A stretch of 64,000 nucleotides of DNA from Bacteroidales bacterium (GCA_041662065.1 JBAZTE010000004.1:197620-261619), one strand, 5' to 3'. Positions 10,441 to 39,900 are shown, counted from the stretch's first letter. The notes: generated by a model from the letters alone, not told the origin. Numbers and translations are program-made.

Positions 10441-10537
10441 TCTTAAATCTAATTTTTGCCTTCTGCCTTTTGCCTTCTGCCCTGGTTCAAGGCATAAGGC
10501 ACAAGGCAGAAGGCAAAAATTAGTTGTAAGATTTAAG
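10441..10537. repeat. hairpin built from opposed heptamer arrays (NTGCCTT)x4 / (AAGGCAN)x4; likely rhaA terminator
   Basis: Left heptads at 10456-10483 and right heptads at 10489-10516, with outer arms TCTTAAATCT / AGATTTAAGA. Confidence 0.65.
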
Positions 10538-23536: not shown

Positions 23537-23573
23537 CTTGCAACTTGCAACCTGCAACCTGCAACCTGCAACA
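23537..23573 (+). repeat. GCAACCN heptamer array (about 5 units)
   Basis: CTTGCAA CTTGCAA CCTGCAA CCTGCAA CCTGCAA starts on the base after the wzz stop. Confidence 0.85.
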
Positions 23574-23581
23574 CTCTTACT

Positions 23582-25936
23582 ATGAAATATAAATACTTCT
23601 TATTAGCCCTCCTTCTCCTTGGAGCGCTCTCTTTCCCGCAATTCTCTCCGGCGCAGGAAATACAGAACGTAAAAGTCTCTGAGCTCACCGATGCCCAGAT
23701 CAAGCAATTGATGTCGGAGGTTTCGAAGCTTGGGATGTCGATGGAGGATGCGGCTGCACTGGCAAAGATGCGGGGTGCAACCGATGCACAGATCAAGGAT
23801 CTGATGGGACGAATTCTGACCATGAATCAGGCAAAGGAGAAAGACAGCACTCTGACGAACAAGGCTCAAGGCTCAAGGCTCAAGAATGAAGATTTAATGA
23901 AGAAAGAGAGGATAGGTAAGAAAGAGAAGAAAGAGGTGGATTCAATCGGAGTTGAGCGGAGGATCTTCGGTTTCGATTTGTTTAATAATGAGAACCTTAC
24001 TTTTGAACCCAGTGTAAACATCCAGACTCCCAAAGAGTATGTCATTGGTATCGGGGATGAGTTCATCATAAACATCTGGGGAGGATCCGAAGCACTTTAC
24101 CAATCAAAGGTGGACAAGAACGGCGCTATTCAGATTCCACAGATCGGGCCGATCTACGTGAACGGATTGTCCTATGAGGTGGCTGAATCCTTGATTCGCA
24201 AACGCCTGGCCAGTATTCACAACGGATTGGCAGGACTCAATCCCAATACTTATGCCATCGTTAATCTCGGTGGTCTTCGAAGTATTCAGATTACCGTGGT
24301 GGGCGATGTCATGACCCCTGGTACCTATACGTTACCGGCAACAGCGTCGCTCTTCAATGCCTTATACCAATCGGGTGGCCCCAATAAAACAGGTTCCTTC
24401 CGGGACATCCGGTTGATTCGAAATGGAAAGATATTGAGACACATAGATATTTACAATTTCCTGGTCAATGCCGATGCAACCGATAATATTCCATTGCGGG
24501 ACCAGGATGTAGTCTTTATTCCCACCTATCAAAAACGGGTCAGTGCCGATGGAGAATTCCTGCGTAATGGACTTTTTGAAATGAAAGGTCAGGAAACGCT
24601 TGGTGACCTGATTCATTTTACAGGCGGATTCACCAATAAAGCATTTCAATTCCAGGTAGCTGTCAATCGCAGAACTTCAACCGAAATGAAATTGCAGGAT
24701 ATCGATCCCGCAAGTTGGGGAAGTTTTGTCATGGAAAACGGGGATTCGGTAAAAGTGGGGAACATTCTGGACCGTTATGCTAACCGGGTTAAGATCGGGG
24801 GAGCCGTATTCCGTCCGGGTACGTTCGAACTGGTGAATGGCATGACGCTTCTTGATTTGATCACTAAAGCCGGAGGACTAAAGGAAGATGCCTACCTCAA
24901 CCGGGGCCAGATTCTCCGGTTAAAGGATAACGGCGATACGTTGTCAGTTGCTTTTGATGTGGCCAGTGTTTCTGCAGGAATTGAAACCGTTCCGTTATTT
25001 CGCGAAGACTCGGTATCCATAAAAACGGGTGTGGAATTGCGCGAAGAATATTATGTTGAAATACAGGGAGAAGTGAATAATCCGGGCGAGAAATCCTATT
25101 ACGATAATATGACGGTTCAGGATTTGGTATACCTGGCAGGAGGGTTTAAGGAGAGCGCCGATGTTAACGTGATCGAAATCGCCAGACGCCTGACTCATGA
25201 TGAAGCTGCTATACTGAGTGATTCGCTGGGTCATGTATTCACCGTCAGCGTACCCAGAGATTTAAAACCCGGGACCGATGATTCCAGATTTATTCTACGA
25301 CCATTTGATCTCGTATCGGTTAGAAAGGCTCAGGGTTACAGGGATCAGGGAAGTGTTGCTGTATCGGGTGAAGTACTCTATGCCGGTTATTATTCAATAA
25401 AGAGCAGGCAAAACCGGATCAGCGACCTGATCAAATGGTCAGGTGGACTGACCCCCGATGCCTATGTGGATGCAGCCAGACTATATAAAACAGATTCGAT
25501 TCCGGTTGGGATTGACCTTAAAAAGATATTGATTGATCACGGCAGCCGGCTGAATATGATTCTGGATCCAGGGGATTCCCTGTATATTCCCAAACAGCCG
25601 CAAATAGTCAATATCGTTGGTCAGGTACAAAAACCCTTTGCAAATACCTTTATTCCGAATAAGGGAGTCAAGTATTATGTTAAAAATGCAGGGGGATGGG
25701 CAGAATCTCCGGCTAAAAGAAGCATTTACGTGACCTATCCGGACGGGAGTTCCGACAACACCCGGACTTTTATCGTCCATCGTTATCCTCCGATCAAGCC
25801 AGGAAGTACAATCGTCATACCAAAAGAACCCGTAAAACCTCCTAAACCCGACAGAACAGCCGTCTGGCTGGCACTGGCCAGTACCATGTCTTCTATTGCA
25901 CTGACACTGGTGACGATATTGAATTTGACGAAGTAG
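23582..25936 (+). CDS. polysaccharide export protein, Wza-like with SLBB domains (copy 2)
   Basis: 784 aa with a signal peptide, YVIGIGDEFIINIWG, SLBB modules and a C-terminal helix. Confidence 0.85.
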   Translation: MKYKYFLLALLLLGALSFPQFSPAQEIQNVKVSELTDAQIKQLMSEVSKLGMSMEDAAALAKMRGATDAQIKDLMGRILTMNQAKEKDSTLTNKAQGSRLKNEDLMKKERIGKKEKKEVDSIGVERRIFGFDLFNNENLTFEPSVNIQTPKEYVIGIGDEFIINIWGGSEALYQSKVDKNGAIQIPQIGPIYVNGLSYEVAESLIRKRLASIHNGLAGLNPNTYAIVNLGGLRSIQITVVGDVMTPGTYTLPATASLFNALYQSGGPNKTGSFRDIRLIRNGKILRHIDIYNFLVNADATDNIPLRDQDVVFIPTYQKRVSADGEFLRNGLFEMKGQETLGDLIHFTGGFTNKAFQFQVAVNRRTSTEMKLQDIDPASWGSFVMENGDSVKVGNILDRYANRVKIGGAVFRPGTFELVNGMTLLDLITKAGGLKEDAYLNRGQILRLKDNGDTLSVAFDVASVSAGIETVPLFREDSVSIKTGVELREEYYVEIQGEVNNPGEKSYYDNMTVQDLVYLAGGFKESADVNVIEIARRLTHDEAAILSDSLGHVFTVSVPRDLKPGTDDSRFILRPFDLVSVRKAQGYRDQGSVAVSGEVLYAGYYSIKSRQNRISDLIKWSGGLTPDAYVDAARLYKTDSIPVGIDLKKILIDHGSRLNMILDPGDSLYIPKQPQIVNIVGQVQKPFANTFIPNKGVKYYVKNAGGWAESPAKRSIYVTYPDGSSDNTRTFIVHRYPPIKPGSTIVIPKEPVKPPKPDRTAVWLALASTMSSIALTLVTILNLTK
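23860..23884 (+). repeat. heptamer array (CAAGGCT)x3.5 inside wza copy 2
   Basis: CAAGGCTCAAGGCTCAAGGCTCAAG is read as (K)AQGSRLK. Confidence 0.8.
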
Positions 25937-25952
25937 GGAAGAGGGGGAGGAT

Positions 25953-26036
25953 GCGGGTTGCTGGTTGCTGGTTGCTGGTTGCTGGTTGCTGGTTGCAAGT
26001 TGCTGGTTGCAAGTTGCGGGTTGCTGGTTGTGGGTT
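25953..26036 (-). repeat. GCAACCN heptamer array, complement orientation (about 12 units)
   Basis: GCGGGTTGCTGGTTGCTGG...GTTGTGGGTT. Ends at the stop codon of the four-helix-bundle gene. Confidence 0.9.
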
Positions 26037-26400
26037 AGGTACGCCAGTTGTCTTCGACGTATTGGATGAAGTTATTTATTTGCTTACCAAGACCTTCATA
26101 TTCTGATATTAACTCATCAATTGGGTGTTGTTCAAAATGCAGAATATTTATCAAGTCCAACTGCGACATGGATTCATCACATGACGCTTGGGCAAAAATG
26201 AGATATCTTATAAATTCCATTTTGTACCGTCTCCGACCATAACCTTCGGCGATATTATCCTTAATGCTTTTAGATGATCTCCGAACCTGACTCCCCTGCT
26301 CATACATTTCATATTTAGGTAATGTCATGGTCATATGATGAACACGAATGGCCAGATTAAAAGCCTTTTGGTAAATCTCCAAATCTCTAAAACTTTTCAT
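26035..26400 (-). CDS. four-helix-bundle protein (23S rRNA intervening-sequence protein family)
   Basis: MKSFRDLEIYQKAFNLAIRVHHMT..LPKYEMYEQGSQVRRSSKSIKDNIAEGYGRR is the family signature. The ORF-track N-terminal extension to 26505 only translates the repeat array. Confidence 0.85.
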   Translation of the reverse strand: MKSFRDLEIYQKAFNLAIRVHHMTMTLPKYEMYEQGSQVRRSSKSIKDNIAEGYGRRRYKMEFIRYLIFAQASCDESMSQLDLINILHFEQHPIDELISEYEGLGKQINNFIQYVEDNWRT

Positions 26401-26413
26401 AGTATCTATTTTT

Positions 26414-26458
26414 AACCTGCAACCAGCAACCAGCAACCAGCAACCCGCAACCAGCAAC
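26414..26458 (+). repeat. GCAACCN heptamer array (about 6.5 units)
   Basis: AACCTGCAACCAGCAACCAGCAACCAGCAACCCGCAACCAGCAAC, inverted relative to 25953-26036. Confidence 0.9.
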
Positions 26459-26486
26459 AATATATAGACGCTAAATCCTGCCTCCA

Positions 26487-27569
26487 ATGGAAAAATCCCC
26501 ACCAAATCAAATCGACCTTTTCTCGATAGCCAAAACCTTGTGGCAGGGTCGGAAAACGGTCTTGTTATGGGTTATGATTGTTGTGATTGTTGGTTTGGTA
26601 ATTGCATTCTCCAGCCCCCGCGTTTACACAGCACGGACTGTTATGGTGCCGCAGGTGCAGTCGAAGAGTTCGGGCCTGGGGAGCCTGGGGAGTTTGGGAG
26701 GATTAGCGGCGATGGCCGGGATAAATCTGAGTAATCTGAATGCAGGCACAGAGGATATTTCACCGTTGGTGTATCCTGAGATTGTAAGAAGTTATTCGTT
26801 CCAGAAAGAAATTATGTATACACCACTCACCTGGAGATCGGTTGGTATGCCGGTCAGTTTGGTTGAGTATGTGCAGAAGTATCAGAGAATCGGATTATTT
26901 GGCAAGGTCAAGAAGGCCATTTTCAGGCTGCCGCGGACGGTTAAATCATGGTTTGCCAGGGAAGAAAGACCGATGGTTGCCGCTGCCGGTGATTCTTTAA
27001 CCCGGATCAGCGAAAACGAACAGGAATTGTGGGATGACATGTCTGAATCCCTGACCTTAAGCGTGGATAAGAAGAATGGTTTTATCACACTCACGGCATT
27101 GGGCCCCGAACCTCTGGTGACGGCCCAAATTGCCGATAAGGCAATGAACCTGCTGCAATCGAGGATCACGGAATTCCGCATCGAAAAGGCCCGGGAGAAC
27201 CTGAATTTCATACAGGGACGTTTCGATGACAAGAAAAAGGAATTTCAATCCACCCAGGATCGTCTGGCCCGCTTCCGCGACGGAAACCAGGGCATGAACT
27301 CCAACCGGGTGAAAACCGAGGAGGACCGTTTGCAAAGTGAATACCAGCTGGCATTCACGGTTTATTCGGAATTGGCAAAACAACTCGAGAGCGCTAAAAT
27401 TTCAGTAAAGGAGGACACCCCCGTTTTTTCAATCATCGAATCGGTTATTGTTCCGGTTAATCCTTCGAAGCCCAGGAAACTGGTGATTCTTATGTTTAGC
27501 TTCCTTTTGGGTGGTTTTTTAGGTATTGGTTTCCTGTTTGCCAAACAGCATTGGAACGAAGCAACCTGA
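26487..27569 (+). CDS. Wzz-type chain-length determinant protein (copy 2)
   Basis: 360 aa, colinear with 22427-23536 (..RKT.L......G...A..SP..YTA.TVMVPQ.. and ..ITEFRI.KA...L.FIQ.R..). Roughly one-third identical by eye. Confidence 0.8.
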   Translation: MEKSPPNQIDLFSIAKTLWQGRKTVLLWVMIVVIVGLVIAFSSPRVYTARTVMVPQVQSKSSGLGSLGSLGGLAAMAGINLSNLNAGTEDISPLVYPEIVRSYSFQKEIMYTPLTWRSVGMPVSLVEYVQKYQRIGLFGKVKKAIFRLPRTVKSWFAREERPMVAAAGDSLTRISENEQELWDDMSESLTLSVDKKNGFITLTALGPEPLVTAQIADKAMNLLQSRITEFRIEKARENLNFIQGRFDDKKKEFQSTQDRLARFRDGNQGMNSNRVKTEEDRLQSEYQLAFTVYSELAKQLESAKISVKEDTPVFSIIESVIVPVNPSKPRKLVILMFSFLLGGFLGIGFLFAKQHWNEAT

Positions 27570-27573
27570 CGTG

Positions 27574-28833
27574 ATGAGTCAATTCCGTTCAGGCATTGTT
27601 GGAAAGATTCGCCGGCATGGGGGTATTATCCAGAATTTTTCCTACCTGTCTGTCATCCAGCTGGTTAATCTCCTGGTAACCCTGGCAACCTATCCTTTTC
27701 TAATCCGGGTGCTCGGAAAGGAAGTGTTCGGATTGGTGGTGTACGCGCAGGCGATCATAACCTATCTGGTTGTACTCATCAGTTTCGGATTCCAGATCAG
27801 TGCAACACGGGAAGTTTCCATTCACCGGAATGATCCACGGAAGCTTAATGAGATATTCAGCAGTGTTCTGATTTTAAAGGGTTTATTATTCCTCGCTTCC
27901 GTTGGCCTGTTATTCCTGATAACCTTATTCATCCCGCAGGCCCGTGAACATAAGGTTCTTTTCCTTCTGAGCATGTTTACCTGCTTTTATGAGTTTATCT
28001 TTCCTTTCTGGTTTTTCCAGGGGATCGAAAAGATGGGTTATCTGACCCTCATAACCCTCATAACCAAACTAACTTTCTTTATCCTGATATTCCTGTTCAT
28101 CCGCAGCAAAAAAGACTATCTGCTGGTACCCCTGTTTAATGGGATCGGGTCGGTTCTTGCCGGTGTTATTTCCATCTGGATTGCGGTGGTCCGTGAAAAA
28201 GTCCGTTTCAGTTTCCAGCCATTCCATCGTCTTTGGCACTACTTTCGGGAAAGCAGCGCCCTCTTTGTTTCGAATTTCGCCAATCAGGTTTATGTAAATG
28301 CCAATAAAGTAATCGTAGGACTTTCATTGGGTATGGGAGAGGTCGCCCTGTATGATCTGGCAGAAAAGATCGTCCTGGCCATGAAAATCCCTCAAAACAT
28401 GTTGAATCAGGCGATTTTCCCAAAAATAATCAAGGAGCGCAATGTGGCATTTTCGAAAAAAATTCTCCTGTATTCCATGGTTGGCCAGGCAGCTTTTTTC
28501 TTTCTTATAGTCTTAACGTCTTCGGTCTTAGTTCTTCTTCTCGGTGGCAGGGAAATGTCGCAATCTACCGGTTTGTTACGCCTGTTGGCCTTAACCGTTC
28601 CCGTTAATGCAATCAGCAGCTTCCTTGGAATCCAGTTCCTTGTGGCGCATGGATTTAAAAGACTCTATACGAGGGTCATCGTTTTGTCGGTCGTGTTGTA
28701 TGCTTTGATGTGCACCGGGTTATGGGTAAATGGTTCAATAAGCCTGATTTCGGTTATCCTGGCTACCATCGCGACTGAAGTATTTGGTTTGGTTGCGATG
28801 ATGGTTATGGTGGGGAGGAGGAGGTTGGGGTGA
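27574..28833 (+). CDS. wzx: Wzx-type oligosaccharide flippase (copy 1)
   Basis: About 420 aa with 12 or more hydrophobic helices. N-terminal NFSYLSVIQLVNLLVTLATYPFLIRVLG is typical of the polysaccharide-biosynthesis (Wzx) family. Confidence 0.8.
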   Translation: MSQFRSGIVGKIRRHGGIIQNFSYLSVIQLVNLLVTLATYPFLIRVLGKEVFGLVVYAQAIITYLVVLISFGFQISATREVSIHRNDPRKLNEIFSSVLILKGLLFLASVGLLFLITLFIPQAREHKVLFLLSMFTCFYEFIFPFWFFQGIEKMGYLTLITLITKLTFFILIFLFIRSKKDYLLVPLFNGIGSVLAGVISIWIAVVREKVRFSFQPFHRLWHYFRESSALFVSNFANQVYVNANKVIVGLSLGMGEVALYDLAEKIVLAMKIPQNMLNQAIFPKIIKERNVAFSKKILLYSMVGQAAFFFLIVLTSSVLVLLLGGREMSQSTGLLRLLALTVPVNAISSFLGIQFLVAHGFKRLYTRVIVLSVVLYALMCTGLWVNGSISLISVILATIATEVFGLVAMMVMVGRRRLG

Positions 28834-28836
28834 AGT

Positions 28837-28890
28837 GGGTTGCGGGTTGCAAGTTGCTGGTTGCAAGTTGCTGGTTGCTGGTTGCTGGTT
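28837..28890 (-). repeat. GCAACCN heptamer array, complement orientation (about 8 units)
   Basis: GGGTTGCGGGTTGCAAGTTGCTGGTTGCAAGTTGCTGGTTGCTGGTTGCTGGTT, starting 4 nt after the wzx stop. Confidence 0.9.
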
Positions 28891-28940
28891 AGACAAGGCA
28901 TTCAGTGGGATAATTTGTGAAATAATTCAGGTCATTTTTT

Positions 28941-30269
28941 GTGTCAATTAGTGGAAGTAATTCTGTCCGTTGGCTGAAGAATGTCAACCCTGCAGAATGG
29001 GTTGATTTCCTGCTGATCAGCTATTTGTATTGGGTGGCGTTCGAGTGGACCATTCTTTCGAGGTTGGGGAATTACGGACTGATACAGGTGATCAGGAATA
29101 CGGTTGATCTGATTCCGATTGTCCTTTTACTGATCAGTATCATTGTTCTGAATCCAAAATTCAAAAGCCCTGAACTCAGGATATTCTCCGGTTTCGCCTT
29201 AATCATCATACTTTCGGCGATATCCTTGATTCTTGAGAGTACTGGGATCGCTCCTGTAACCGGCTATATCGGTGTTACAGTAAGATTTGTTCCGCTCATT
29301 GTTCTGGTCAGGTATACCAGCGTTGATTTTCAGCGGAAGTTGTTTAGTCAGGTAAGGATCATTTACTGGCTGCTCGCTGGACTCGGCCTGCTGAGTTTGT
29401 TCGGCAAAGATTGGTTCAACGGTCTTTTCCTGCCTTCGGTGGATGTTTTCGGTGAGGTAGTACCCACCACCTACAAGGATCCGGGAATAGGTGCCACGTT
29501 TATCAATACCGTAGAATTTGCCTTCTTTCTTCTCGGTCTTACGATTATCTATCTGGAGGGATCGCAATCAAAAAGGGAAAAGCTCTTTGTCAGCCTTCTG
29601 TCTTTTGTCTTATGTCTTTTGTCTTTCTCCATAGCTTCTGTCTTAGGTCTTTTTCTCATCTTCTTCCTCCGCAGTACCCGGAAAGTACTGGTAGCCACGG
29701 TTTTTACCGGATTGCTCATCATCGCTTTCCTGTTTTTCAATGGTTTTATCGTCCAGCTGCTCGGGATGGATATAAAATACTGGATTGAAATCTCGTCCGA
29801 GTTCAACCGGTTGGGCTACCTGACAAAAGTGTTCCCGGAGTTTTTGCACGGAGGCTTCAAGGATCTGTTCCTGGGAATGGGTTATGATGCCGGAGTGGTT
29901 GACCTGAAGTTGGCCAACTACCACAACACTCCGTTCGTGATGATCAACAACGAGAATAACCTGAAGTACCTGAAAGATGTATATTGGCTATCCATCCTGA
30001 TCGTCCAGGGATTCATCGCGTTCATTACCACTTTCTATATCCTGGTATCCGTTTGGATGGGCGCCGGGCGTGAAGGATCCGAAGCAAACTACCGGGCAGT
30101 AAAAATTTTTATTCTTTTGGCTTTATTCCTGGGGATGTTTAACCAGATTCTGGATATGAAAGCTTTTTCCTTTTGTTTCTGGCTGATGGCCGGAATGGCA
30201 CTGAATAAACCGGCTATTCTGACAGAGATATCGTTTGTTAAAACCCGTTTGTCGGGTGAAACCGCATGA
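28941..30269 (+). CDS. O-antigen polymerase/ligase-like (Wzy-type) polytopic membrane protein
   Basis: 442 aa with about 11 TM helices and a larger loop. Located between wzx and glycosyltransferases. GTG start. Confidence 0.55.
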   Translation: MSISGSNSVRWLKNVNPAEWVDFLLISYLYWVAFEWTILSRLGNYGLIQVIRNTVDLIPIVLLLISIIVLNPKFKSPELRIFSGFALIIILSAISLILESTGIAPVTGYIGVTVRFVPLIVLVRYTSVDFQRKLFSQVRIIYWLLAGLGLLSLFGKDWFNGLFLPSVDVFGEVVPTTYKDPGIGATFINTVEFAFFLLGLTIIYLEGSQSKREKLFVSLLSFVLCLLSFSIASVLGLFLIFFLRSTRKVLVATVFTGLLIIAFLFFNGFIVQLLGMDIKYWIEISSEFNRLGYLTKVFPEFLHGGFKDLFLGMGYDAGVVDLKLANYHNTPFVMINNENNLKYLKDVYWLSILIVQGFIAFITTFYILVSVWMGAGREGSEANYRAVKIFILLALFLGMFNQILDMKAFSFCFWLMAGMALNKPAILTEISFVKTRLSGETA

Positions 30270-31624
30270 AGAGACTGAAAGTACTGGTTTCAGCCCATGA
30301 ATTATCGCCATACCAGGGCTCCGAATGTGCAGTCGGGTGGAACCTGGTTACCCGGATAGCCCGTTATCACGACGTTACAGTTCTGTATGCGCGTGGCAGC
30401 CAGTTTTTCCCGGATGCTTACGAAACGGCCATCAGGAATTATTATACAGAGAACAAAAACGAGTTTAACATAAAATTTATTGCAGTTCCGCAACCCGATA
30501 CCACACTCTGGCTGGCAGCGATAAACAAGCGGATATCCAGGAACAGCTCCAGTATCGGCGTACCGTTTCTCTACTTCATCGGTTACCGGCTGTGGCAAAA
30601 AAGCGCCTACCGCATGGCCAAAACACAGGAACCATTTGACATCATCCATCATTTAACGTCCGTAACATTCAGAGAACCGGGTTATTTGTGGAGATTGCCA
30701 GTGCCCTTCGTATGGGGTCCAACGGGTGGAACCACAAATATTCCTATTCGTTTTTATCCGTTTATTGGGATCCGTGCTGCCAGTCATGAAGCTTTCCGTG
30801 CGATAACCAACCGACTGACACTTTGGTTCAGTTACAAGATTAGCCGGGCGATGAAAAAAAGCTCGCTGATCTACGCTTTTTCAGCGGAGGATCAGGCCTT
30901 GTTTCAAAGGAGGATGGTGAAGAGGGTGGAGGTGATGCTGGAGACCGGATGCGGGGAGGATGATGCAAGTTCCAATCAACCAGCAACCAGCAACCAGCAA
31001 CCTGCAACTTCCAATCATCTCCGCGTCCTCTGGTGCGGACGGTTGGTCAACTCTAAAGCGCTGGATATTTTACTTAAGGCCCTGGCAGGAGATCAGGATT
31101 TGATGAATCGGGTAAAGCTCACTATTGTGGGCGACGGTCCTTTGCGCAGTAAGTATGAAAAGCTGATCAAAAAGCTCTTCCCTCCAACCTGTAACCCGCA
31201 ACCTGCAACAAATATCTCTTTCACCGGCTGGCTCCCAAGGGATCAGGTAGTCCGCTGCATGAGGCAATCCGATGTGCTGGTCCATACCAGTTATCGGGAG
31301 GGTACCTCACACGTGATCCTTGAGGCACTATCTGCCGGCTTACCGGTAATCTGTCACGACATCAGTGGCATTTCCATCGCTGTGACCGGGGAATGCGGAA
31401 TCAAGGTTCCTTTAGTATCCTATAAAAAGAGCGTTCTCGGTTTCCGCGACGCGATTAGGGTTGCTAGTTGCAAGTTGCAAGATGCAAGTTGCTCCACACA
31501 AACTGCAACCGGCAACCTGCAACCTGCAACAAATCTCCGCTCGGGTGCCCTGAACAGGGCAAAAGAACTCTCCTGGGACTCGCTGGCCGAACGCATCTCC
31601 ACCGCTTATAATGATCTGCAATGA
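30266..31624 (+). CDS. GT4-family glycosyltransferase carrying three in-frame heptamer arrays
   Basis: GT-B layout. C-terminal domain ..VLWCGRLVNSKALDILLKAL.., ..SYREGTSHVILEALSAGLPVICHD.. (E-x7-E region). Confidence 0.8.
   Translation: MKRLKVLVSAHELSPYQGSECAVGWNLVTRIARYHDVTVLYARGSQFFPDAYETAIRNYYTENKNEFNIKFIAVPQPDTTLWLAAINKRISRNSSSIGVPFLYFIGYRLWQKSAYRMAKTQEPFDIIHHLTSVTFREPGYLWRLPVPFVWGPTGGTTNIPIRFYPFIGIRAASHEAFRAITNRLTLWFSYKISRAMKKSSLIYAFSAEDQALFQRRMVKRVEVMLETGCGEDDASSNQPATSNQQPATSNHLRVLWCGRLVNSKALDILLKALAGDQDLMNRVKLTIVGDGPLRSKYEKLIKKLFPPTCNPQPATNISFTGWLPRDQVVRCMRQSDVLVHTSYREGTSHVILEALSAGLPVICHDISGISIAVTGECGIKVPLVSYKKSVLGFRDAIRVASCKLQDASCSTQTATGNLQPATNLRSGALNRAKELSWDSLAERISTAYNDLQ
30969..31016 (+). 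repeat. GCAACCN array flanked by the 9-nt direct repeat TTCCAATCA, inside GT4 gene 1
   Basis: TTCCAATCA at 30969-30977 and 31008-31016. The 30 nt between is ACCAGCAACCAGCAACCAGCAACCTGCAAC. One repeat copy plus the array is 39 nt. Confidence 0.8.
31184..31210 (+). repeat. short GCAACCN array inside GT4 gene 1
   Basis: CCAACCTGTAACCCGCAACCTGCAACA is read as PTCNPQPAT. Confidence 0.7.
31458..31531. repeat. inverted pair of heptamer arrays (potential hairpin) inside GT4 gene 1
   Basis: GGGTTGCTAGTTGCAAGTTGCAAGATGCAAGTTGC (31458-31493) faces CTGCAACCGGCAACCTGCAACCTGCAACA (31503-31531). Read as VASCKLQDASCSTQTATGNLQPAT. Confidence 0.75.
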
Positions 31625-32871
31625 AGGTTCTCCTCATTAACAGGAATGACTTTGTGGATGGGGGAGCGGACCGGGTGTTTCTGAATACGTTTGATTTGTT
31701 GCAGGTTGCAGGTTGCGGGTTGCAGGTTGAGAAGTTTACAAGGGAAGATGTCGGGATGGAGACAATAGTTGATCCCCGCTCCTTATCAGTCTGGAAAAAG
31801 TTGCTGCATGTCAGAGACTATCTGTATAACCGTCGGGTGGCAGGTTGTCTGGATCGCAAAATCCAGGTGTTTCGTCCGGATGTGGCACATGTGCACCTGT
31901 TTTACGGGACCCTGTCAACCTCCATTTTAAAGGTTCTAAAAAAGAAAAAAGTACCGGTTGTCCTTACCGTACATGATTACCGGTTGCTTTGTCCGGCAAA
32001 TGCCATGCTCGACCGCCACGGACACATCTGTGAAAAGTGCTATAGAACAAAATATTATCAGTGTTTTATTAAACGGTGCTCCGGGGGAAATCTGTTTTTC
32101 AGCACAGTGATCATGCTGGAAGCCTACCTGAGAAAATGGATGTATAAACCAATAAAATTGATCGATCGCTTTATTTTCGTCAGTGATTTTAGCCGCAACA
32201 AGCATATTGAATTCGATCCGCGGTATATGGCAAAATCCATCCGGCTCTACAACATGGCCGACGAAAAACCTGGTATAATTCCAATAAAGGGTGACTATCT
32301 CCTCTTCTATGGAAGAATATCAAAGGAAAAAGGCCTGTTAACCCTGATCGAAGCAGTTAAAAACATTCAAGTAAAACTGATCATCGCCGGCCGCGGCCCT
32401 CAGGAAGAGGAAATAAAAAGACTGATAGACTATAAGACTATAAGACCCGCAACCAACAACCCGCAACCCGCAACCCGCAACCAGCAACCCGCAACCAGCA
32501 CCATCGACTTTGCCGGCTTCCTCTCAGGCAGCGAACTCGGGCAATTGATCCTTGGCTGCTCATTCGTGGTAGTTCCCTCGGAATGGTATGAAAACAATCC
32601 CATGACGGTGGTTGAGGCCTTCGCGCTGGGCAAGCCGGTCATCGGATCGCGGATCGGGGGGATACCCGAATTGGTAACTTCTGAAACCGGTTTTTTATTC
32701 GAACCCGGTAATCCTCTCTCACTGGCGGAGGCAATTGAAAAAGCTGTCAATCTATCCACAGAAAAATATAAAATGATGAGTGTTTCCTGCCGCGAATTTG
32801 CCAACATGAACTTTGACCGCAGGAAACATCTGGAACAACTTACCGGGATTTACCAACAAGTTGTGAATTGA
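31621..32871 (+). CDS. GT4-family glycosyltransferase carrying two in-frame heptamer arrays
   Basis: GGADRVF.., YGRISKEKG, PSEWYENNPMTVVEAFALGKPVIGSRIGGIPELV (E-x7-E). Confidence 0.85.
   Translation: MKVLLINRNDFVDGGADRVFLNTFDLLQVAGCGLQVEKFTREDVGMETIVDPRSLSVWKKLLHVRDYLYNRRVAGCLDRKIQVFRPDVAHVHLFYGTLSTSILKVLKKKKVPVVLTVHDYRLLCPANAMLDRHGHICEKCYRTKYYQCFIKRCSGGNLFFSTVIMLEAYLRKWMYKPIKLIDRFIFVSDFSRNKHIEFDPRYMAKSIRLYNMADEKPGIIPIKGDYLLFYGRISKEKGLLTLIEAVKNIQVKLIIAGRGPQEEEIKRLIDYKTIRPATNNPQPATRNQQPATSTIDFAGFLSGSELGQLILGCSFVVVPSEWYENNPMTVVEAFALGKPVIGSRIGGIPELVTSETGFLFEPGNPLSLAEAIEKAVNLSTEKYKMMSVSCREFANMNFDRRKHLEQLTGIYQQVVN
31696..31729 (-). repeat. GCAACCN array (complement orientation) inside GT4 gene 2
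   Basis: GTTGCAGGTTGCAGGTTGCGGGTTGCAGGTTG is read as LQVAGCGLQVE. Confidence 0.8.
32446..32502 (+). repeat. GCAACCN array (about 8 units) inside GT4 gene 2, preceded by a GACTATAA x2 octamer repeat
   Basis: CCGCAACCAACAACCCGCAACCCGCAACCCGCAACCAGCAACCCGCAACCAGCACC is read as RPATNNPQPATRNQQPATST. Confidence 0.85.
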
Positions 32872-32873
32872 CC

Positions 32874-33566
32874 ATGAAGCGCCTGATCAACACTATTGTC
32901 CGTAAGCTCGGAAGATCCGGCTACCGGTTGGATGACCATATCTCTTCTTACAGTCTTCTGGTCTTATTAGTCTCAAAGTCTTGCCAGCTGGTCCGGGGTT
33001 TGTGCCTCAAGGCTACGCTGAAAAAATCATCCGGACTGCTCTTTGTGGGCAGAAGATGCCGGATCAGGTACCGACACCTGATCACAACCGGAAAAACGCT
33101 GACTCTGGGTGATTATGTTGAAATCAATGCCCTCTCAAAAGCGGGGGTTCACCTGGGCGACAATGTGTCCATACTGAAAGGAACAATCATAGAATGTACC
33201 GGGGTCATGCGTAACCTGGGTGAAGGACTGACGATCGGGAACAATGTTGGGATCGCGCAGAACGGTTTTATCCAGGTCAGGGGGAAGGTGGTGATCGGCG
33301 ACAACGTCATTTTCGGACCGAATGTTTCCGTTTTCTCGGAGAATCACGTATTTGACAATCCGGATATCCCGGTTTCCATTCAGGGGGAGACCCGAAAAGG
33401 AGTCACCATTGAGGAAGGTGCCTGGATCGGCACCCGTGCTGTGATCCTCGACGGCGTAACGGTAGGCAGGAACAGCATTGTGGCCGCCGGGAGTATAGTC
33501 ACACGCGACGTGCCTGCATACACCGTGGTGGGCGGAGTGCCGGCGAAAGTACTTAGAAGCAGATAG
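32874..33566 (+). CDS. left-handed beta-helix (hexapeptide-repeat) O-acetyltransferase
   Basis: Hexapeptide repeats GDNV.I..G..I.., IGNNVGI, IGDNVIFGPNV, IGTRAVILDGVTVG, with C-terminal VGGVPAKV. Confidence 0.8.
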   Translation: MKRLINTIVRKLGRSGYRLDDHISSYSLLVLLVSKSCQLVRGLCLKATLKKSSGLLFVGRRCRIRYRHLITTGKTLTLGDYVEINALSKAGVHLGDNVSILKGTIIECTGVMRNLGEGLTIGNNVGIAQNGFIQVRGKVVIGDNVIFGPNVSVFSENHVFDNPDIPVSIQGETRKGVTIEEGAWIGTRAVILDGVTVGRNSIVAAGSIVTRDVPAYTVVGGVPAKVLRSR

Positions 33567-33614
33567 TTGCTAGTTGCTAGTTGCTAGTTCAACCAGCAAC
33601 CAGCAACCCGCAAC
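33567..33614. terminator. imperfect hairpin formed by (GTTGCTA)x3 facing (CAACCAG/C)x3.5
   Basis: Starts on the base after the TAG stop. The arms pair with about one mismatch per heptad. There is no T-tract, so terminator function is uncertain. Confidence 0.45.
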
Positions 33615-33637
33615 AAAAAGACCTCTAACACACTATC

Positions 33638-34531
33638 ATGAAACGAATCTACATCGCCGGATGCGGTGGTATGCTGGGTGATGCATTTTATGTGCGGTTT
33701 AAAGATACGTACAAGCTGAAATGCACCGACATCGATGTGAATTCCGACTGGCTTTCTTTCCTGGATTTCAGGGATTTGGAGGCCTACCGGAAAGATGTCA
33801 GGGAATTCAGGCCGGATTATCTGTTTCATTTGGGAGCGTATACTGACCTGGAGTATTGCGAAATGAATCCGGATGACACCTATCGTACAAACACTGAGGC
33901 AGTTGCGAATGCCGTTATAATCGCCAACGAACTGGATATCCCTTTGCTGTATATCAGCACTGCCGGGATCTTCGACGGCAAAAAGGATGTATATGATGAT
34001 TGGGATCTTCCCAATCCGATTGGTGTATATGCCCGGTCGAAGTATCTGGGAGAAAGGCATGTGGTGGAAAATGTTGAGAAACATCTGGTTTGCCGCGCCG
34101 GCTGGATGATGGGAGGTGGCCCGGGGAAGGATAAGAAATTCATCGGAAAACTGATGAGGCAGATCGGGGAGGGGAGCCAGGAACTGTTTATCGTGACGGA
34201 TAAGGATGGAACACCGACTTTTACCCATGATTTTGCCCTGAACGTGAAGGAACTCATCGAAAAGGAGCGCTGGGGGCTGTATAATATGGCCTGCGAAGGT
34301 TTTACCAGCCGGATGGAGGTTGCACAGGAACTGATCAGGTTACTGAACCTCCGGGAGAAGATTACCATCACCCCTGTTTCCTCGGATTACTACCGGGGAA
34401 CCTATTTTGCCCAGCGCCCTCCGAGTGAGCGCCTGGTAAACCGTAAACTGAGGAATCTCGGACTGAACCGCATGCGTAACTGGAGGATCGCACTGAAGGA
34501 TTATCTCGATAATCACTATTACGGGAATTGA
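33638..34531 (+). CDS. RmlD-like NAD(P)-dependent sugar reductase (SDR family)
   Basis: IYIAGCGGMLG (Rossmann fold), YARSKYLGE (YxxxK), about 297 aa as in dTDP-4-dehydrorhamnose reductases. Confidence 0.7.
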   Translation: MKRIYIAGCGGMLGDAFYVRFKDTYKLKCTDIDVNSDWLSFLDFRDLEAYRKDVREFRPDYLFHLGAYTDLEYCEMNPDDTYRTNTEAVANAVIIANELDIPLLYISTAGIFDGKKDVYDDWDLPNPIGVYARSKYLGERHVVENVEKHLVCRAGWMMGGGPGKDKKFIGKLMRQIGEGSQELFIVTDKDGTPTFTHDFALNVKELIEKERWGLYNMACEGFTSRMEVAQELIRLLNLREKITITPVSSDYYRGTYFAQRPPSERLVNRKLRNLGLNRMRNWRIALKDYLDNHYYGN

Positions 34532-34536
34532 GGACG

Positions 34537-35592
34537 ATGCGGAAAATCGCCATTATCGGATCTCACGGAATATATGCCAATTATGGCGGTTGGGACGAAC
34601 TGGTCCGGAATCTTGCCGAACGGAAACCGGAAGATCTGCAATACATCATCTTTAATTCGGCCGGCTATCCTGCTCAAAAAGAACCTCCTGATGGAGTAAG
34701 CATCCGGCAGTTGAAATTCAGGGCCGATGGATACCAGGGTCTGTTTTACGATTTCTGGTCGATCCTGGTCTGCTGGCGGAAAGCAAATACCCTGCTGCTC
34801 CTGGGCGCCCAGGGAATTCCACTGGCCGCTTTTCTGCGCCTGTTTCGCAAATTCAGGATAGTCGCCAATGCCGGCGGATTCGAATGGGAGCGGCCGAAAT
34901 TCGGTTTTTTTCTTAAACGATATCTGAAGTGGTGTTTCAATCTGAGCATGCGATACGCCGATACTGTTATCCTGGATAACCCCCATTACCGGAATTTTCT
35001 ACCCGAAAAGGTGAAGGCTGATGTCAAAGTTATACCCTATGGCGGTGAAATCGATACCAGCCTGGAAGTGAATGAAGGATTACTCGAAAAATACCCGTTT
35101 CTGGACAAGCCCTATTTTCTATCGGTCAGCCGCCCATTAAAGGATAATCAGCTGGAGGAGCTGTGCAGCAGCTTTATTGGATCGGACCACACACTGGTGC
35201 TGATTTCGAATTTTTCCAGCACTCCCTACGGGATATCGGTATTGAAGAAGTACAGGAGTATCGGTAACCTGATACTGATCAACGGGCTCTATGTGAAGCC
35301 GGAACTCGACCTCATCCGCCGGAAATGCAAGGCCTATATCCATACCCATACACTCTGCGGAACCGCACCTTCATTGGTTGAGATGATAATCGCCCAAAGG
35401 CCGGTCCTTTCGGTCGATAACCCCCAAAACAGGAACACCCTTCGGGAGGAAGGGTTTTTCTATAAATCCTTTACACAGGTTCACGAATTGATTAACAACG
35501 ATTCCGATCTGTCGCGGTACATTCCCCCGAAAGAGCTCTGCGACCGGTATCAATGGAGTACTATCGTTGCTGAATATGAATCAACCTTCTGA
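34537..35592 (+). CDS. DUF1972-type GT4 glycosyltransferase
   Basis: N-terminal KIAIIGSHGIYANYGGWDELVRNLAE matches the DUF1972 pattern (IIG.RGIPA.YGGFET). Confidence 0.7.
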   Translation: MRKIAIIGSHGIYANYGGWDELVRNLAERKPEDLQYIIFNSAGYPAQKEPPDGVSIRQLKFRADGYQGLFYDFWSILVCWRKANTLLLLGAQGIPLAAFLRLFRKFRIVANAGGFEWERPKFGFFLKRYLKWCFNLSMRYADTVILDNPHYRNFLPEKVKADVKVIPYGGEIDTSLEVNEGLLEKYPFLDKPYFLSVSRPLKDNQLEELCSSFIGSDHTLVLISNFSSTPYGISVLKKYRSIGNLILINGLYVKPELDLIRRKCKAYIHTHTLCGTAPSLVEMIIAQRPVLSVDNPQNRNTLREEGFFYKSFTQVHELINNDSDLSRYIPPKELCDRYQWSTIVAEYESTF

Positions 35593-36628
35593 TAAAAAGA
35601 AAATCCTGATCACCGGCGCCTATGGTTTCGTTGGCACTAATCTTTTGAAGGAGTTATGCAATGATTATCAATTAATTGCCCTTGACCTGGAATCCACCTC
35701 ACCCCCAACCCCCTCTCCCGCGCTCCCTTCGGTCACGGGAGAGGGGAAGGAGCCCTATTCAGACTTCTTCTCTTGGCAGGATCTGGATTCCATCCCCTGG
35801 GATACCCTCGACACCATCATCCACCTGGCTGGAAAGGCCCACGATACACGAAACATTGCTGATGAAAAGGAGTACTTTGAAGTCAATGTCGGGCTGACGG
35901 AAAAAATCGCTGAACGGTTTCAAAACTCGACTGCCCGTAAACTGATCTGTTTCAGCTCAGTAAAAGCAGTCGCCGATTCTTTTCCGGAAGGATTCTTAAC
36001 CGAAGAGACAACCCCGGCTCCAACCACGCCATACGGCCGATCCAAACTCGCCGCCGAGAAAATACTTCTGCAACCCGCAACCCGCAACCAACAACCTGCA
36101 ACCTGCAACCTGCAACCTGCAACCAGCAACCAGCAACCTGCAACCCGCAACCTCCTCTACCTCCTCCGCCCCTGCATGATCCACGGCCCCGGCAACAAAG
36201 GCAACCTGAACGAACTCGTCCGGTTTGTAAAAACAGGACTTCCCTGGCCGCTGGGCGCTTTTGAAAACCAGCGTTCCTTCACTTCAATTGCCAATTTGGT
36301 TTTTGTAATCAGGCAACTGATCGATAAGGAGATAGAGCCGGGCATTTACCAGGTGGCCGACGATGAACCGCTTTCAACGAATGAATTGATCAGGATGATT
36401 GCGTACTCGATGGGTAAAAGAGCGCGGATAATGAAACTTCCACCGGGTTTGATCAGGGGGCTGGCCCGATTGGGCGACCGTTTACCTTTTCCCCTGAACA
36501 GTGAACGTCTGCAGAAACTCACTGAATCCTACCGGGTCTCGAATCAGAAACTGAAAAATGCCCTCGGCATCGAACGAATGCCCGTAACCGCTGCCGAGGG
36601 GATGAGAAATACTCTTAAAACATTTTAG
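35576..36628 (+). CDS. NAD-dependent epimerase/dehydratase with two in-frame repeat insertions
   Basis: ILITGAYGFVGTNL, YGRSKLAAE (YxxxK), LRPCMIHGPG. Precedes the initiating sugar transferase. Confidence 0.8.
   Translation: MNQPSDKKKILITGAYGFVGTNLLKELCNDYQLIALDLESTSPPTPSPALPSVTGEGKEPYSDFFSWQDLDSIPWDTLDTIIHLAGKAHDTRNIADEKEYFEVNVGLTEKIAERFQNSTARKLICFSSVKAVADSFPEGFLTEETTPAPTTPYGRSKLAAEKILLQPATRNQQPATCNLQPATSNQQPATRNLLYLLRPCMIHGPGNKGNLNELVRFVKTGLPWPLGAFENQRSFTSIANLVFVIRQLIDKEIEPGIYQVADDEPLSTNELIRMIAYSMGKRARIMKLPPGLIRGLARLGDRLPFPLNSERLQKLTESYRVSNQKLKNALGIERMPVTAAEGMRNTLKTF
35710..35746 (+). repeat. GC hairpin CCCCTCTCCCG-N15-CGGGAGAGGGG inside the epimerase CDS
   Basis: Perfect 11-bp stem. Translated as part of ..TPSPALPSVTGEGKE.. 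Confidence 0.75.
36069..36152 (+). repeat. GCAACCN array, exactly 12 units (84 nt = 28 codons), inside the epimerase CDS
   Basis: Units counted by hand. Read as LQPATRNQQPATCNLQPATSNQQPATRN. Confidence 0.9.
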
Positions 36629-37315
36629 ATGAAGAGGTCATTTGACATTGTAATAAGTTTTCTCGCGATGGTCGTGGCTCTTCCTTTCATGATCCCGGTG
36701 ATGATCATTCTTAAACTGACCGGAGAGCACTATGTGTTCTATCGCCAGGCACGGGTCGGGCAACACGGGAAGAGCTTCAGGATGTATAAATTCTCCACCA
36801 TGCTGCTTAAGAGCCCCGAACTGCTCAGTGGCGACATCACACTCAGGAAAGATCCGCGGGTACTGCCTTTCGGCCGCTTTCTGAGGATCACCAAGATCAA
36901 TGAGATCCCTCAACTGATCAATGTGTTTAAGGGAGATATGTCATTGGTGGGTCCGCGGCCGATGCCCCCGGCTAATTTCAGCTTTTATACCCCCGGGGCT
37001 CAGGCGATGATCCTGAAACTTCAGCCCGGCATGACGGGTGTCGGGACCATCATCTTCCGGGAGGAGGAAGAGATGCTGGCCTCCAGCCCGCTGGGCCCCG
37101 AAGAGACTCACCGCCAATGGATGAGCCCGCACAAGGCCCGCCTCGAAGAATGGTACCTGAACAATCGCTCGCTTTGGGTCGATCTGAAAATCCTGTTCCT
37201 GACCCTCTGGGTGATACCATTCAAGGACAGCGCGCTGCCGTACCGGGTACTGAAGGGGCTGCCAGAGTTTCCGGGGGAGCTGAGAAAGGCGGCTGGCAAT
37301 GGGCGTGGCAATTAG
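36629..37315 (+). CDS. initiating phosphoglycosyl (bacterial sugar) transferase, small PglC/WbaP-C-terminal type
   Basis: KRSFDIV.S......LPF, RVG..GK.F.MYKF.TM, DPRV..FGRFLR...I.E.PQL.NV..G.MSLVGPRP. Confidence 0.9.
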   Translation: MKRSFDIVISFLAMVVALPFMIPVMIILKLTGEHYVFYRQARVGQHGKSFRMYKFSTMLLKSPELLSGDITLRKDPRVLPFGRFLRITKINEIPQLINVFKGDMSLVGPRPMPPANFSFYTPGAQAMILKLQPGMTGVGTIIFREEEEMLASSPLGPEETHRQWMSPHKARLEEWYLNNRSLWVDLKILFLTLWVIPFKDSALPYRVLKGLPEFPGELRKAAGNGRGN

Positions 37316-37460
37316 AGGTTGCGATTGTTATGATGGTTGTGATTGTTATGATAGTTATGATGGTTATGATGGTATGACCCAACCACAACAACCACAACAA
37401 CCATAACCACCATAACAACCATAACCACCATAACAACCATAACCACCACAACAACCACAA
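37316..37460. repeat. roughly 145-nt imperfect hairpin built from opposed 9-mer arrays (GTTATGATG-like / CAACCATAA-like)
   Basis: Left arm of about 7 units (37316-37378), right arm of about 9 units (37380-37460). Starts right after the TAG stop and ends 9 nt before the next GTG start. Confidence 0.8.
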
Positions 37461-37469
37461 CTTCTCTCC

Positions 37470-38900: not shown

Positions 38901-38904
38901 TCTG

Positions 38905-39900
38905 ATGATTCCGGACGTTTCGGTCATTATTGTCAATTTTAATACGGAGGATTACCTGGTTGAGTGCATCGGCTCGGTATTCGAACAGACCGGGAGCCGG
39001 CAAGTTGAAATTATCGTCGTGGATAATGCCTCCGACGTGGATCCCTCAGCAAAGATCACGGCTATTTATCCACACGTCAGGATGATCCGGAATACGATGA
39101 ACCGGGGATTCGGTGCCGCCAACAATACCGGCGCCGCTGAGGCAAGAGGGAAATTCCTGTTTTTTTTGAATCCGGATACCGTTCTGCTGAACGACAGTAT
39201 CGGGATCTTCCATCGATTTATGAATTCCGATAATAGAACTGACCGGGTGGTTGCTTGTGGGGGGAACCTGGTCAGATCGGACAAATCCCCGGCTCCTGCC
39301 TGGGGTAATCTTCCAACCCTCAGCTTGCTGTTCAGCGACTTGGGATTCAGAAAGTTATATAAAAATTATTATGAAAGCCGGTTGGCCACCAACGGTTACT
39401 GCAATTCTCAAGAAGACAGACCGGTACCATACATTGCCGGGGCCGACCTGTTCATACGGAAAGATATATTCCTCAAGCTAGGCGGATTCAGTGAACAGTA
39501 CTTCATGTATTTTGAGGATGCGGATCTCGGTTACCGGCTGAAACGGGAAGGATATAAAACATACCTGTTGCCGGAAGCTAAAATCCTTCATCATGAAAGT
39601 CTGAGTACCAGGAATGGCAACGGATTCAATTACCGGAAATATGAATTGCTGGAAAAAAGCAAATATCTCTATTTCAAAAAAAATCACGGTTTTATCGCGG
39701 CTCATGTCGCAAAAGATTTACAATTGATCTCTCTTCTTGTCTACGCTATTGCTCATCGTTTAGCTAACGTGCAACTTGCAACCAGCAACCCGCAACCAGC
39801 AACCCGCAACCCGCATCCTGTAACCCGCAACCCGCATCCTGTAACCAGCAACCCGCAACCCGCAACCCGCAACCTTTTGAAAATCACCCTCGATGCCTGA
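38905..39900 (+). CDS. GT2-family glycosyltransferase with a heptamer-array C-terminal tail
   Basis: VSVIIVNFNT, VVDNASDV, FLNPDT (DxD region), YFMYFEDADLGYR. Confidence 0.85.
   Translation: MIPDVSVIIVNFNTEDYLVECIGSVFEQTGSRQVEIIVVDNASDVDPSAKITAIYPHVRMIRNTMNRGFGAANNTGAAEARGKFLFFLNPDTVLLNDSIGIFHRFMNSDNRTDRVVACGGNLVRSDKSPAPAWGNLPTLSLLFSDLGFRKLYKNYYESRLATNGYCNSQEDRPVPYIAGADLFIRKDIFLKLGGFSEQYFMYFEDADLGYRLKREGYKTYLLPEAKILHHESLSTRNGNGFNYRKYELLEKSKYLYFKKNHGFIAAHVAKDLQLISLLVYAIAHRLANVQLATSNPQPATRNPHPVTRNPHPVTSNPQPATRNLLKITLDA
39770..39874 (+). repeat. GCAACCN array, exactly 15 units (105 nt = 35 codons), forming the GT2 C-terminus
   Basis: Units counted by hand, including the variants CGCATCC/TGTAACC. 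Read as (V)QLATSNPQPATRNPHPVTRNPHPVTSNPQPATRN. Confidence 0.9.

Follow-up and report, generated by a model that had tools for sequence, protein, structure and literature searches.

What are the tandem arrays of a seven-nucleotide unit, GCAACCN, that lie between and inside the genes of a bacterial polysaccharide locus, and where do they come from? The locus in question is part of a stretch of 64,000 nucleotides from a Bacteroidales metagenome-assembled genome (MAG; GCA_041662065.1 JBAZTE010000004.1:197620-261619), which was analysed in full and is called the window here. An earlier note on this DNA had offered two answers, a selfish repeat tolerated in coding DNA or a set of contingency loci; it had overlooked that two of the arrays are the inverted arms of a gene of the PF05635 family (S23p, related to Avd), the family whose genes are found in the intervening sequences (IVSs) of 23S rRNA. 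The reading that we favour, with a probability of roughly 0.55, is that the GCAACCN arrays make up the repeat family which a selfish, IVS-type cassette has in this locus, with solo derivatives that are tolerated in frame.

A four-helix-bundle gene between inverted arrays

The gene encodes a four-helix-bundle (4HB) protein and forms the following unit with the arrays on either side of it:

25949-26031, minus strand: 3' arm of the 4HB cassette, 12 units reading NGGTTGC on the plus strand (GCAACCN in the sense of the gene)
26035-26400, minus strand: 4HB gene, 121-residue four-helix-bundle protein (PF05635 23S_rRNA_IVP, TIGR02436)
26419-26459, plus strand: 5' arm of the 4HB cassette, 6 units

Read in the sense of the gene, the layout is (NGGTTGC)6 - 14 nt - ATG...TAA - 3 nt - (GCAACCN)12; the 3' arm begins 3 nt past the 4HB stop codon, while the 5' arm is separated by 14 nt from the minus-strand ATG of the 4HB gene and by 27 nt from the ATG of wzz-2 (26487). 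The protein matches PF05635 in Pfam (E=1.2e-26) and TIGR02436 (E=5e-29; NCBI name 'four helix bundle protein'), and the sole solved relative found is Xanthomonas XCC0516 (PDB 2gsc; E=6e-7); a 100% identical 4HB protein (P0121) carries an N-terminal extension read from the array. When 25940-26470 is folded as minus-strand RNA, the arms are predicted to pair as a closing stem of ~45 bp (z=-6.0) with the open reading frame (ORF) in the loop, and this modelled arrangement is the classical architecture of an IVS. The cassette sits between a wza and a wzz gene and not in helix 25 or 45 of 23S rRNA; its neighbours are the genes of Wza, Wzz, Wzx and glycosyltransferases, with no reverse transcriptase or template/variable repeat nearby. 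PADLOC matched no defence system to the 4HB protein. The viral contigs searched contain no close 4HB relative, and carriage of the cassette by phages was rejected on this ground.

The same design recurs among close homologues, of which a metagenome scan based on their alignment yielded 80 loci (61-73% identity). Tandem arrays, almost all of period 7, adjoin the gene upstream in 54 of the 80 loci and downstream in 60, as compared with 16 of 88 other intergenic gaps of those loci (18%; Fisher p = 6e-11 upstream and 7e-14 downstream); period-7 sequence makes up 12-15% of the bases in the 250-nt flanks, as against 0.8% of the distal DNA as a whole and 6.1% of its non-coding part. The upstream units are of the GGTTGC/GGTTAC type and the downstream units, which start 0-20 nt past the stop, are their reverse complements; the two flanks are complementary in 63 of 75 loci, and of 112 arm units, 107 differ from GCAACCN by at most two mismatches. 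In terms of junction anatomy (stop-array-gene-array-ATG), the gene is wedged exactly between the stop of one neighbour and the start of the next, its own TAA is often part of the first downstream unit ('TAACCCG'), and in 32 of 42 loci it points in the same direction as the genes on either side. Among distal arrays of the 80 loci, 9 of 29 have the unit of their own cassette's arms, versus 11% in the control.

Contigs with close 4HB homologues are mostly only ~1-3 kb long, and several of the predicted proteins are N-terminally extended through the upstream array; both features are consistent with arrays that break short-read assemblies and mislead gene callers.

The cassette consists of a PF05635 gene bracketed by inverted 7-nt arrays, 5'-(NGGTTRC)n...gene...(GYAACCN)n-3'. 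In the proposed mechanism, these arms can pair whenever a transcript runs across the cassette; the resulting long stem would loop out the gene and reunite the host flanks, as it does in the classical 23S rRNA IVSs with genes of this family. The arrays at 25949-26031 and 26419-26459 are such arms, and the other arrays of the window would be their gene-less relatives: two empty hairpins plus about ten single arms, which occupy gene junctions and the disordered loops or linkers of four enzymes. Copies inside ORFs would persist because selection spares only in-frame lengths, while unit number would drift through slippage, partly in 14- and 21-nt steps. The solo arrays probably originated as cassette arms or persist through exchange with such arms, the 4HB protein is presumed to be active, and the stem may, by analogy with rRNA IVSs, be processed here by RNase III.

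Distant homologues and ribosomal intervening sequences

A tblastn search of annotated plasmids returned 49 4HB homologues of 30-47% identity, mostly from heterocystous cyanobacteria and also from Riemerella, Azospirillum and Gemmatirosa. Twenty-two of these loci were examined for arrays, and 20 have arrays of period 7 or 8 on both sides of the gene, with lineage-specific units (for instance AGGGTGT/ACACCCT, GGTTTAA/TAAACCT, AGGGAAC/CTGTTCC and TGACAGG/CTGTCAC); in 12 loci each unit matches the reverse complement of the other with at most one mismatch, and arrays cover 23.5% of flank bases versus 1.1% of distal bases. The Azospirillum cassette (L371) lies in a bacterial large-subunit rRNA gene and is a classical 23S rRNA IVS with a stem built of heptamer arrays. 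In the S23p IVS of Coxiella burnetii, the ORF is preceded by tandem GACAGAT repeats, two to three depending on the strain, with RNase III cleaving at the first of them (PMC4990558). A literature search on the repeat sequence and on a tie between heptamers and four-helix-bundle genes turned up this Coxiella record alone, and no paper that generalises it.

This evidence bears on the main rival, a different order of events in which heptanucleotide long simple sequence repeats (LSSRs) are born in place by replication slippage and the PF05635 gene is a separate mobile passenger, inserting preferentially into the loops of array hairpins that were already there, so that the arms would be host target sequence without descent from the cassette. 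Many-unit arrays are indeed common without a cassette (in 18% of the gaps above, in the more distant Bacteroidota contig L121, and at 10457-10515 and 37317-37461 of the window), empty hairpins exist, and the conserved protein is accompanied by arm units that differ from lineage to lineage; composition-matched control heptamers occur in viral contigs as often as GCAACCN, and a bacterial excess of heptamer simple sequence repeats (SSRs) is on record in work cited in PMC4679880 and PMC4692102. Against this stand the arms of the Azospirillum IVS, which are not native target: rRNA helix 45 has no such arms, so these arms belong to the insert, which weakens the idea of homing to existing arrays. The closeness of nearly all arm units to GCAACCN across many host contexts and the frequent inclusion of the gene's own TAA in the downstream array also speak against a passenger, and we regard this explanation as possible, if on the doubtful side.

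Two groups of distant loci deserve a separate description. On three cyanobacterial plasmids (L365, L367, L370), 4HB cassettes with heptamer or 8-mer arms lie between cas6 and cas4 or between cas10 and cmr3; such cassettes may be the reason for the CRISPR-associated label of '23S rRNA IVP' in PMC10910872, a spurious association. In L121 (85-1124), a more distant Bacteroidota 4HB gene has an array of ~500 nt, (AAGTCGG/GAGGTCGG)n, in front of it and the same unit downstream, followed by an inverted-like array; this contig also has many other 7- and 8-nt arrays, among them an in-frame array of 15 copies of a 21-nt unit in an epimerase homologue.

Solo arrays and empty hairpins in the polysaccharide locus

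In the window, the two-unit pattern GCAACCNGCAACC (at most one mismatch) has 72 matches, where 0.16 are expected from shuffled sequence; all of them lie at 23540-39874 and the rest of the window has none, in line with the range of 23.5-39.9 kb given in the earlier note. The same note had counted at least 12 arrays; the arrays are real, and Tandem Repeats Finder together with a periodicity script resolves them into 14 runs of 3-15 units, nine in the plus (GCAACCN) and five in the minus (NGGTTGC) orientation, two of the original 12 (31458-31531 and 33567-33614) being back-to-back inverted pairs, that is, hairpins. The tracts are imperfect: the seventh base varies, variant units occur, and there are higher-order periods of 14 and 21 nt; the longest perfect runs comprise about 4-5 units, and the 7-nt unit of the tracts inside ORFs is not divisible by three. 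The host genes, assigned by Pfam, are those of Wza/Wzz/Wzx/glycosyltransferase polysaccharide synthesis on the plus strand.

That the arrays are not an assembly artefact follows from an independent ENA contig (L205), which matches 34238-36940 without a gap at 99.96% identity and spans the epimerase array, and from orthologous arrays in two further loci, L203 and L204. Seven runs lie inside four open ORFs, as had been claimed, and both the Pfam domains and the homologue alignments continue in the same frame on either side of them; calls of this kind were restricted to ORFs backed by homology. The gene-less arrays are listed below, with GT4 and GT2 standing for glycosyltransferase families 4 and 2 and pLDDT for the predicted local distance difference test score of AlphaFold models.

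23540-23573, plus strand: solo array, 5 units (GCAACTT, three GCAACCT, GCAACAC), behind the wzz-1 stop (23536) and ahead of the wza-2 ATG (23582)
28838-28885, minus strand: solo array, 7 units, 4 nt past the wzx-1 stop (28833) and before ORF 28941-30269
30976-31009, plus strand: GT4-1 (30266-31624) site B, 5 units in frame, encoding SNQPATSNQQPATSN, in the interdomain linker
31184-31210, plus strand: GT4-1 site C, 4 units in frame (PPTCNPQPATN), pLDDT <50 at residues 311-313
31459-31531: GT4-1 site D, gene-less hairpin with minus arm 31459-31492, its periodic run resolved at 31459-31478, and plus arm 31505-31531
31697-31730, minus strand: N-terminus of GT4-2 (31621-32871), 5 units in frame, encoding LLQVAGCGLQV
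32449-32496, plus strand: loop of GT4-2, 7 units in frame (RPATNNPQPATRNQQPATS)
33565-33615: gene-less junction hairpin, (AGTTGCT)3 at 33565-33584 and (GCAACCN)4 at 33589-33615
36070-36152, plus strand: epimerase (35567-36628), 12 units (84 nt) in frame, encoding QPATRNQQPATCNLQPATSNQQPATRN
39771-39874, plus strand: C-terminal tail of GT2 (38905-39900), 15 units (105 nt), with a 21-nt higher-order period

The two longest intragenic arrays have 12 and 15 units, exactly as reported before. The placement of three arrays 0-4 nt past a stop codon holds for those behind ORFs 22427-23536 and 27526-28833; the third, at 33565-33615, overlaps the TAG (33564-33566) of the acetyltransferase gene (32868-33566) and ends 22 nt from the next ATG (33638). 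Both empty hairpins share the polarity of the cassette, with GGTTGC first and GCAACC second, and the other arrays are single arms. The folding energy is -32.5 kcal/mol on the plus strand (z=-3.7) and -42.7 on the minus strand for site D, and -24.2 kcal/mol (z=-5.5) and -38.9, respectively, for the junction hairpin. The solo arrays have the arm unit and occur in the window only within about -2.5/+14 kb of the cassette; five of the nine plus arrays end in GCAACA followed by A or T, like the 3' arms of cassettes.

The earlier note had proposed to place the insertion points on predicted structures and orthologue alignments: most of the in-ORF sites have pLDDT <50, lie between structured elements and are hypervariable in their families, the array at 31697-31730 excepted. 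At site B of GT4-1, the low scores cover residues 230-246 and the family alignment is hypervariable; at site D they cover residues 410-420, and in the epimerase residues 175-191, which link the catalytic helix to the strand that follows it. Homologues from other lineages carry unrelated inserts with a period of seven amino acids (TLNSEPE, QQSTVNS, ITHHSSL and others) at these sites, which are therefore permissive positions recurrently occupied by heptamer arrays. A second low-confidence insert of the epimerase (35696-35740, residues 44-58; STSPPTPSPALPSVTGEGK) is present in its closest homologues only and is not heptamer-periodic. The GT2 stop overlaps the start of the next gene (ATG 39893), and the protein has 331 residues as compared with 300 in the orthologue of the closest syntenic locus (P0002).

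Stop-freedom in all six frames, on which the selfish option of the earlier note partly rested, is correct for pure arrays of GCAACC[A/C/G/T]. It was rejected as a special property of this unit because 8264 of the 16384 heptamers share it as pure arrays; moreover, variant units of the window (GCAACTA, GTAACCC, ACAACCT) bring stops in some frames.

The age of the arrays can be judged from L203, where the gene order is that of the window, the DNA is 72-78% identical overall, and a 4HB orthologue of 88% identity has the same place and orientation. GCAACC-type arrays are found there at eight of the window sites, in equal orientations and with different unit counts (for the cassette 3' arm, about 5 units as against 12 in the window); two of these sites show drift of the unit, now GACAACC, as in the (GACAACC)n of GT4-1 site B. 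The other correspondences with coordinates in L203 are:

L203 4671-4696: array before wza-2, matching window 23540-23573
L203 7064-7096: 3' arm, matching window 25949-26031
L203 10943-10975: array matching GT4-1 site C
L203 11209-11253: minus-type array matching GT4-1 site D
L203 11493-11523: array 33/34 identical to window 31697-31730
L203 12219-12268: array matching window 32449-32496

In L204, the drift has gone further, with different units at the same sites. The arrays are long-lived, as eight sites are common to loci of only 72-78% DNA identity; they change through unit gain or loss and unit drift while staying in frame in genes, and the 14- and 21-nt periods fit growth in larger steps, of which the 21-nt step keeps the reading frame. 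Hypermutable ON/OFF switches would not be expected to behave in this way. The selfish option of the earlier note is accordingly the nearer of its two: tolerance in coding DNA agrees with the low-pLDDT, hypervariable sites, while the shared sites show that the arrays are not recent colonists.

The other option was that gain or loss of one 7-nt unit would frameshift two GT4s, an epimerase and a GT2 and thereby cause combinatorial phase variation of the polysaccharide. It could draw on a unit length that is not a multiple of three, on the presence of the tracts in surface-polysaccharide genes, on unit numbers that differ between species and on the strain-variable heptamer count of the Coxiella IVS (PMC4990558). 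The tracts are imperfect, however; all seven are in frame here, the orthologous tracts of L203 and L204 are in frame as well, and the epimerase tract is identical, with 12 units, in L205, the only independent assembly compared. As such arrays are also found at non-coding junctions and in housekeeping operons, and one of the seven is a mere C-terminal tail, contingency is not supported and seems to us very improbable.

Still less probable is selection for the encoded peptides themselves (of QPATSN and VAGCGLQ type), which might, for example, serve as flexible linkers. Arrays do lie in linkers and loops, and the one at 31697-31730 keeps the conserved G and V of a family motif; nevertheless, a single DNA unit gives unrelated peptides in its two orientations, is also present outside ORFs, and is replaced by unrelated periodic peptides at the same sites in other lineages.

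Somewhat less improbable than these two proposals is that the arrays are functional elements of the operon, either protein-binding sites, possibly for a 4HB pentamer, or long-range RNA pairing partners, the minus/plus pairs organising, processing, terminating or stabilising a polysaccharide transcript of ~20 kb. Position, orientation and the GCAACC core are kept in the 72-78%-identical locus, where one array is 33/34 identical; behind each of the five minus-type arrays comes a plus-type one, the hairpins fold far better than shuffled sequence, and the arrays hug stop and start codons. The minus/plus ordering is not significant, however (P=0.063), and alternation was rejected as a sign of paired long-range stems. 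Unit numbers of orthologous arrays differ freely (12 versus about 5), units differ at the same sites in L204, and folding energy has no strand asymmetry across cassette loci, all of which makes a function of this kind unlikely.

Objections, known systems and significance

Several observations weigh against a cassette origin of the arrays. The first group concerns their physical link to 4HB genes. Of the 29 distal arrays, 20 lack the arm unit, 18% of ordinary intergenic gaps carry period-7 arrays anyway, and the cassette may prefer, or be trapped by, array hairpins that are already there. A genome scan found at least 120 GCAACCN stretches across many phyla, and a recognisable 4HB gene is nearby in 3 of the 120 listed loci; arrays thus far outnumber cassettes and most have no physical link to one. 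(In-ORF classification among these 120 loci is unreliable because stop-free arrays make spurious ORFs.) The second group concerns mechanism. To our knowledge, no transposition or copying mechanism has been described for PF05635 proteins. The window 4HB gene is antisense to its operon, in L203 as well, a minority arrangement seen in 4 of 42 loci; and the array at 31697-31730, which falls at residues ~26-37 of GT4-2, overlays a conserved L..L...GH.V motif with only two to three extra residues, so that it looks like an overwrite and not like a loop insertion. Sense and antisense strands fold better in 30 and 38, respectively, of 68 cassette loci (p=0.32); this lack of strand asymmetry in folding energy gives no support to selection for an RNA stem. 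A related proposal, RNA-level selection through G·U asymmetry, was rejected for the same figures, the window hairpins favouring the minus strand and the 68 loci showing no difference.

The cross-phylum matches were likewise rejected as one universal element, on the strength of the three 4HB loci among 120 and of control heptamers: three composition-matched heptamers gave 62, 36 and 18 stretches in viral contigs as compared with 37 for GCAACCN, so the matches reflect the general abundance of heptamer arrays. A broader proposition, which we hold to be rather doubtful, is that the heptanucleotide-repeat excess of bacteria stems from PF05635 cassettes or has in them its trans-acting partner. If so, the short tandemly repeated repetitive sequences (STRRs) of cyanobacteria, the GGGNATC repeats of Xanthomonas and Nostoc, the Geobacter elements and GCAACCN would all belong to a single ancient class of IVS-type, transcript-parasitic elements, as their arms or solo derivatives; the classical IVSs would be no more than a special case, that of insertion into rRNA, and the 7-nt period would reflect the reading of nucleic acid by a pentameric protein or a copying process that it assists.

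The arrays and the cassette of the window belong with known kinds of element, namely heptanucleotide SSRs/STRRs and S23p intervening sequences. The S23p IVSs of 23S rRNA lie in helix 25 or helix 45, and RNase III cuts their stem. They share with the cassette the protein family, an ORF looped out by complementary flanks that pair as a long stem and, in most cassette loci, an ORF co-oriented with the host transcript; heptameric direct repeats beside the ORF have been reported for Coxiella among the described cases (Leptospira, Coxiella, Brucella, Xanthomonas; PMC4990558). The window cassette and about 100 further loci differ from them in lying between protein-coding genes of operons and not in helix 25 or 45; the window cassette is in addition antisense, and its unit is also found in many gene-less arrays, some of them in frame in enzymes.

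STRRs are known from heterocystous cyanobacteria, with the units STRR1-3. Like other heptanucleotide LSSRs, they consist of tandem arrays scattered through the genome, each genome having its own 7-nt unit; the arrays are found mostly at gene junctions, sometimes as inverted pairs and sometimes inside genes, and the earlier note had aptly named STRRs as a resemblance. In contrast to them, the present arrays are from a Bacteroidales MAG, have the unit GCAACCN and are physically connected with a PF05635 gene; the literature searched makes no such connection for STRR/LSSR repeats. LSSRs of this kind have been described for Xanthomonas and Nostoc (GGGNATC; PMC4692102), for Beggiatoaceae (TAACTGA; PMC4679880) and for Geobacter metallireducens, where elements of four heptamers occur within and between genes (PMC2700814).

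The SSR contingency loci of Haemophilus and Neisseria likewise have short tandem units, not a multiple of three, in genes of surface structures; the tracts described here differ in being imperfect, in frame across species and also non-coding, with no polymorphism seen in the one independent assembly. Rickettsia palindromic elements (RPEs) and hairpins resembling repetitive extragenic palindromes or miniature inverted-repeat transposable elements are also non-autonomous structured repeats at permissive in-frame or junction sites. RPEs, however, are unique palindromes of 100-150 bp, whereas the arrays are tandem, of 7-nt units and often single-armed; the only in-ORF hairpin is 31459-31531 and most arrays have a single orientation, so they fall outside the RPE definition, and the RPE precedent of the earlier note applies only to the two hairpins, intragenic and at a junction. 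Finally, Avd of the diversity-generating retroelements binds nucleic acid and a reverse transcriptase. It has a homologous four-helix-bundle fold and family, and Pfam weakly lists bAvd for the L121 homologue; none of a reverse transcriptase, a template repeat or a variable repeat is near the window gene.

What is new is the physical and statistical link of heptamer repeats to S23p IVSs, together with in-frame solo copies conserved between species. Two decades-old puzzles, the role of the S23p ORF with its 23S IVS and the excess of 7-nt repeats, are thereby brought into one frame, with PF05635 genes found between inverted 7-nt arrays in rRNA, cas operons, housekeeping operons and a polysaccharide locus. 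In practical terms, the arrays account for odd low-complexity inserts in annotated enzymes and for contig breaks at these genes.

Two further structures of the window resemble the empty hairpins with other units:

10457-10515: intergenic hairpin with (TGCCTTC)n/(GAAGGCA)n arms, -44.9 kcal/mol, z=-8.3
37317-37461: inverted arrays of 9/18-nt units, -50.1 kcal/mol, z=-8.2

The former has A/T runs on its flanks and resembles a bidirectional terminator; the latter fits exactly between the stop of the Bac_transf sugar-transferase gene (37315) and the start of a flippase gene (37470). The polysaccharide locus (19341-43123) is itself composite, with two Wza, two Wzz and two Wzx-type flippase genes, and the ortholog-like loci, those of P0002 and L203, vary in the cassettes that lie between the two wza genes. 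Rfam, at its gathering threshold, found two tRNAs and nothing else in the whole window; tandem genes of tRNA-Leu(CAG) and tRNA-Leu(GAG) lie on the minus strand at 1965-2155. Short heptamer runs inside ORFs are present at 23860-23884 (CAAGGCT, 3.6 copies, in wza-2), at 29595-29626 (CTTTTGT, 4.6 copies) and at 40485-40509 (AGGTATC, 3.6 copies, in the ORF of a UDP-GlcNAc 2-epimerase), and a perfect 12-nt repeat of 4.1 copies at 18185-18233 encodes (DVGK)4 in ORF 17044-18423.

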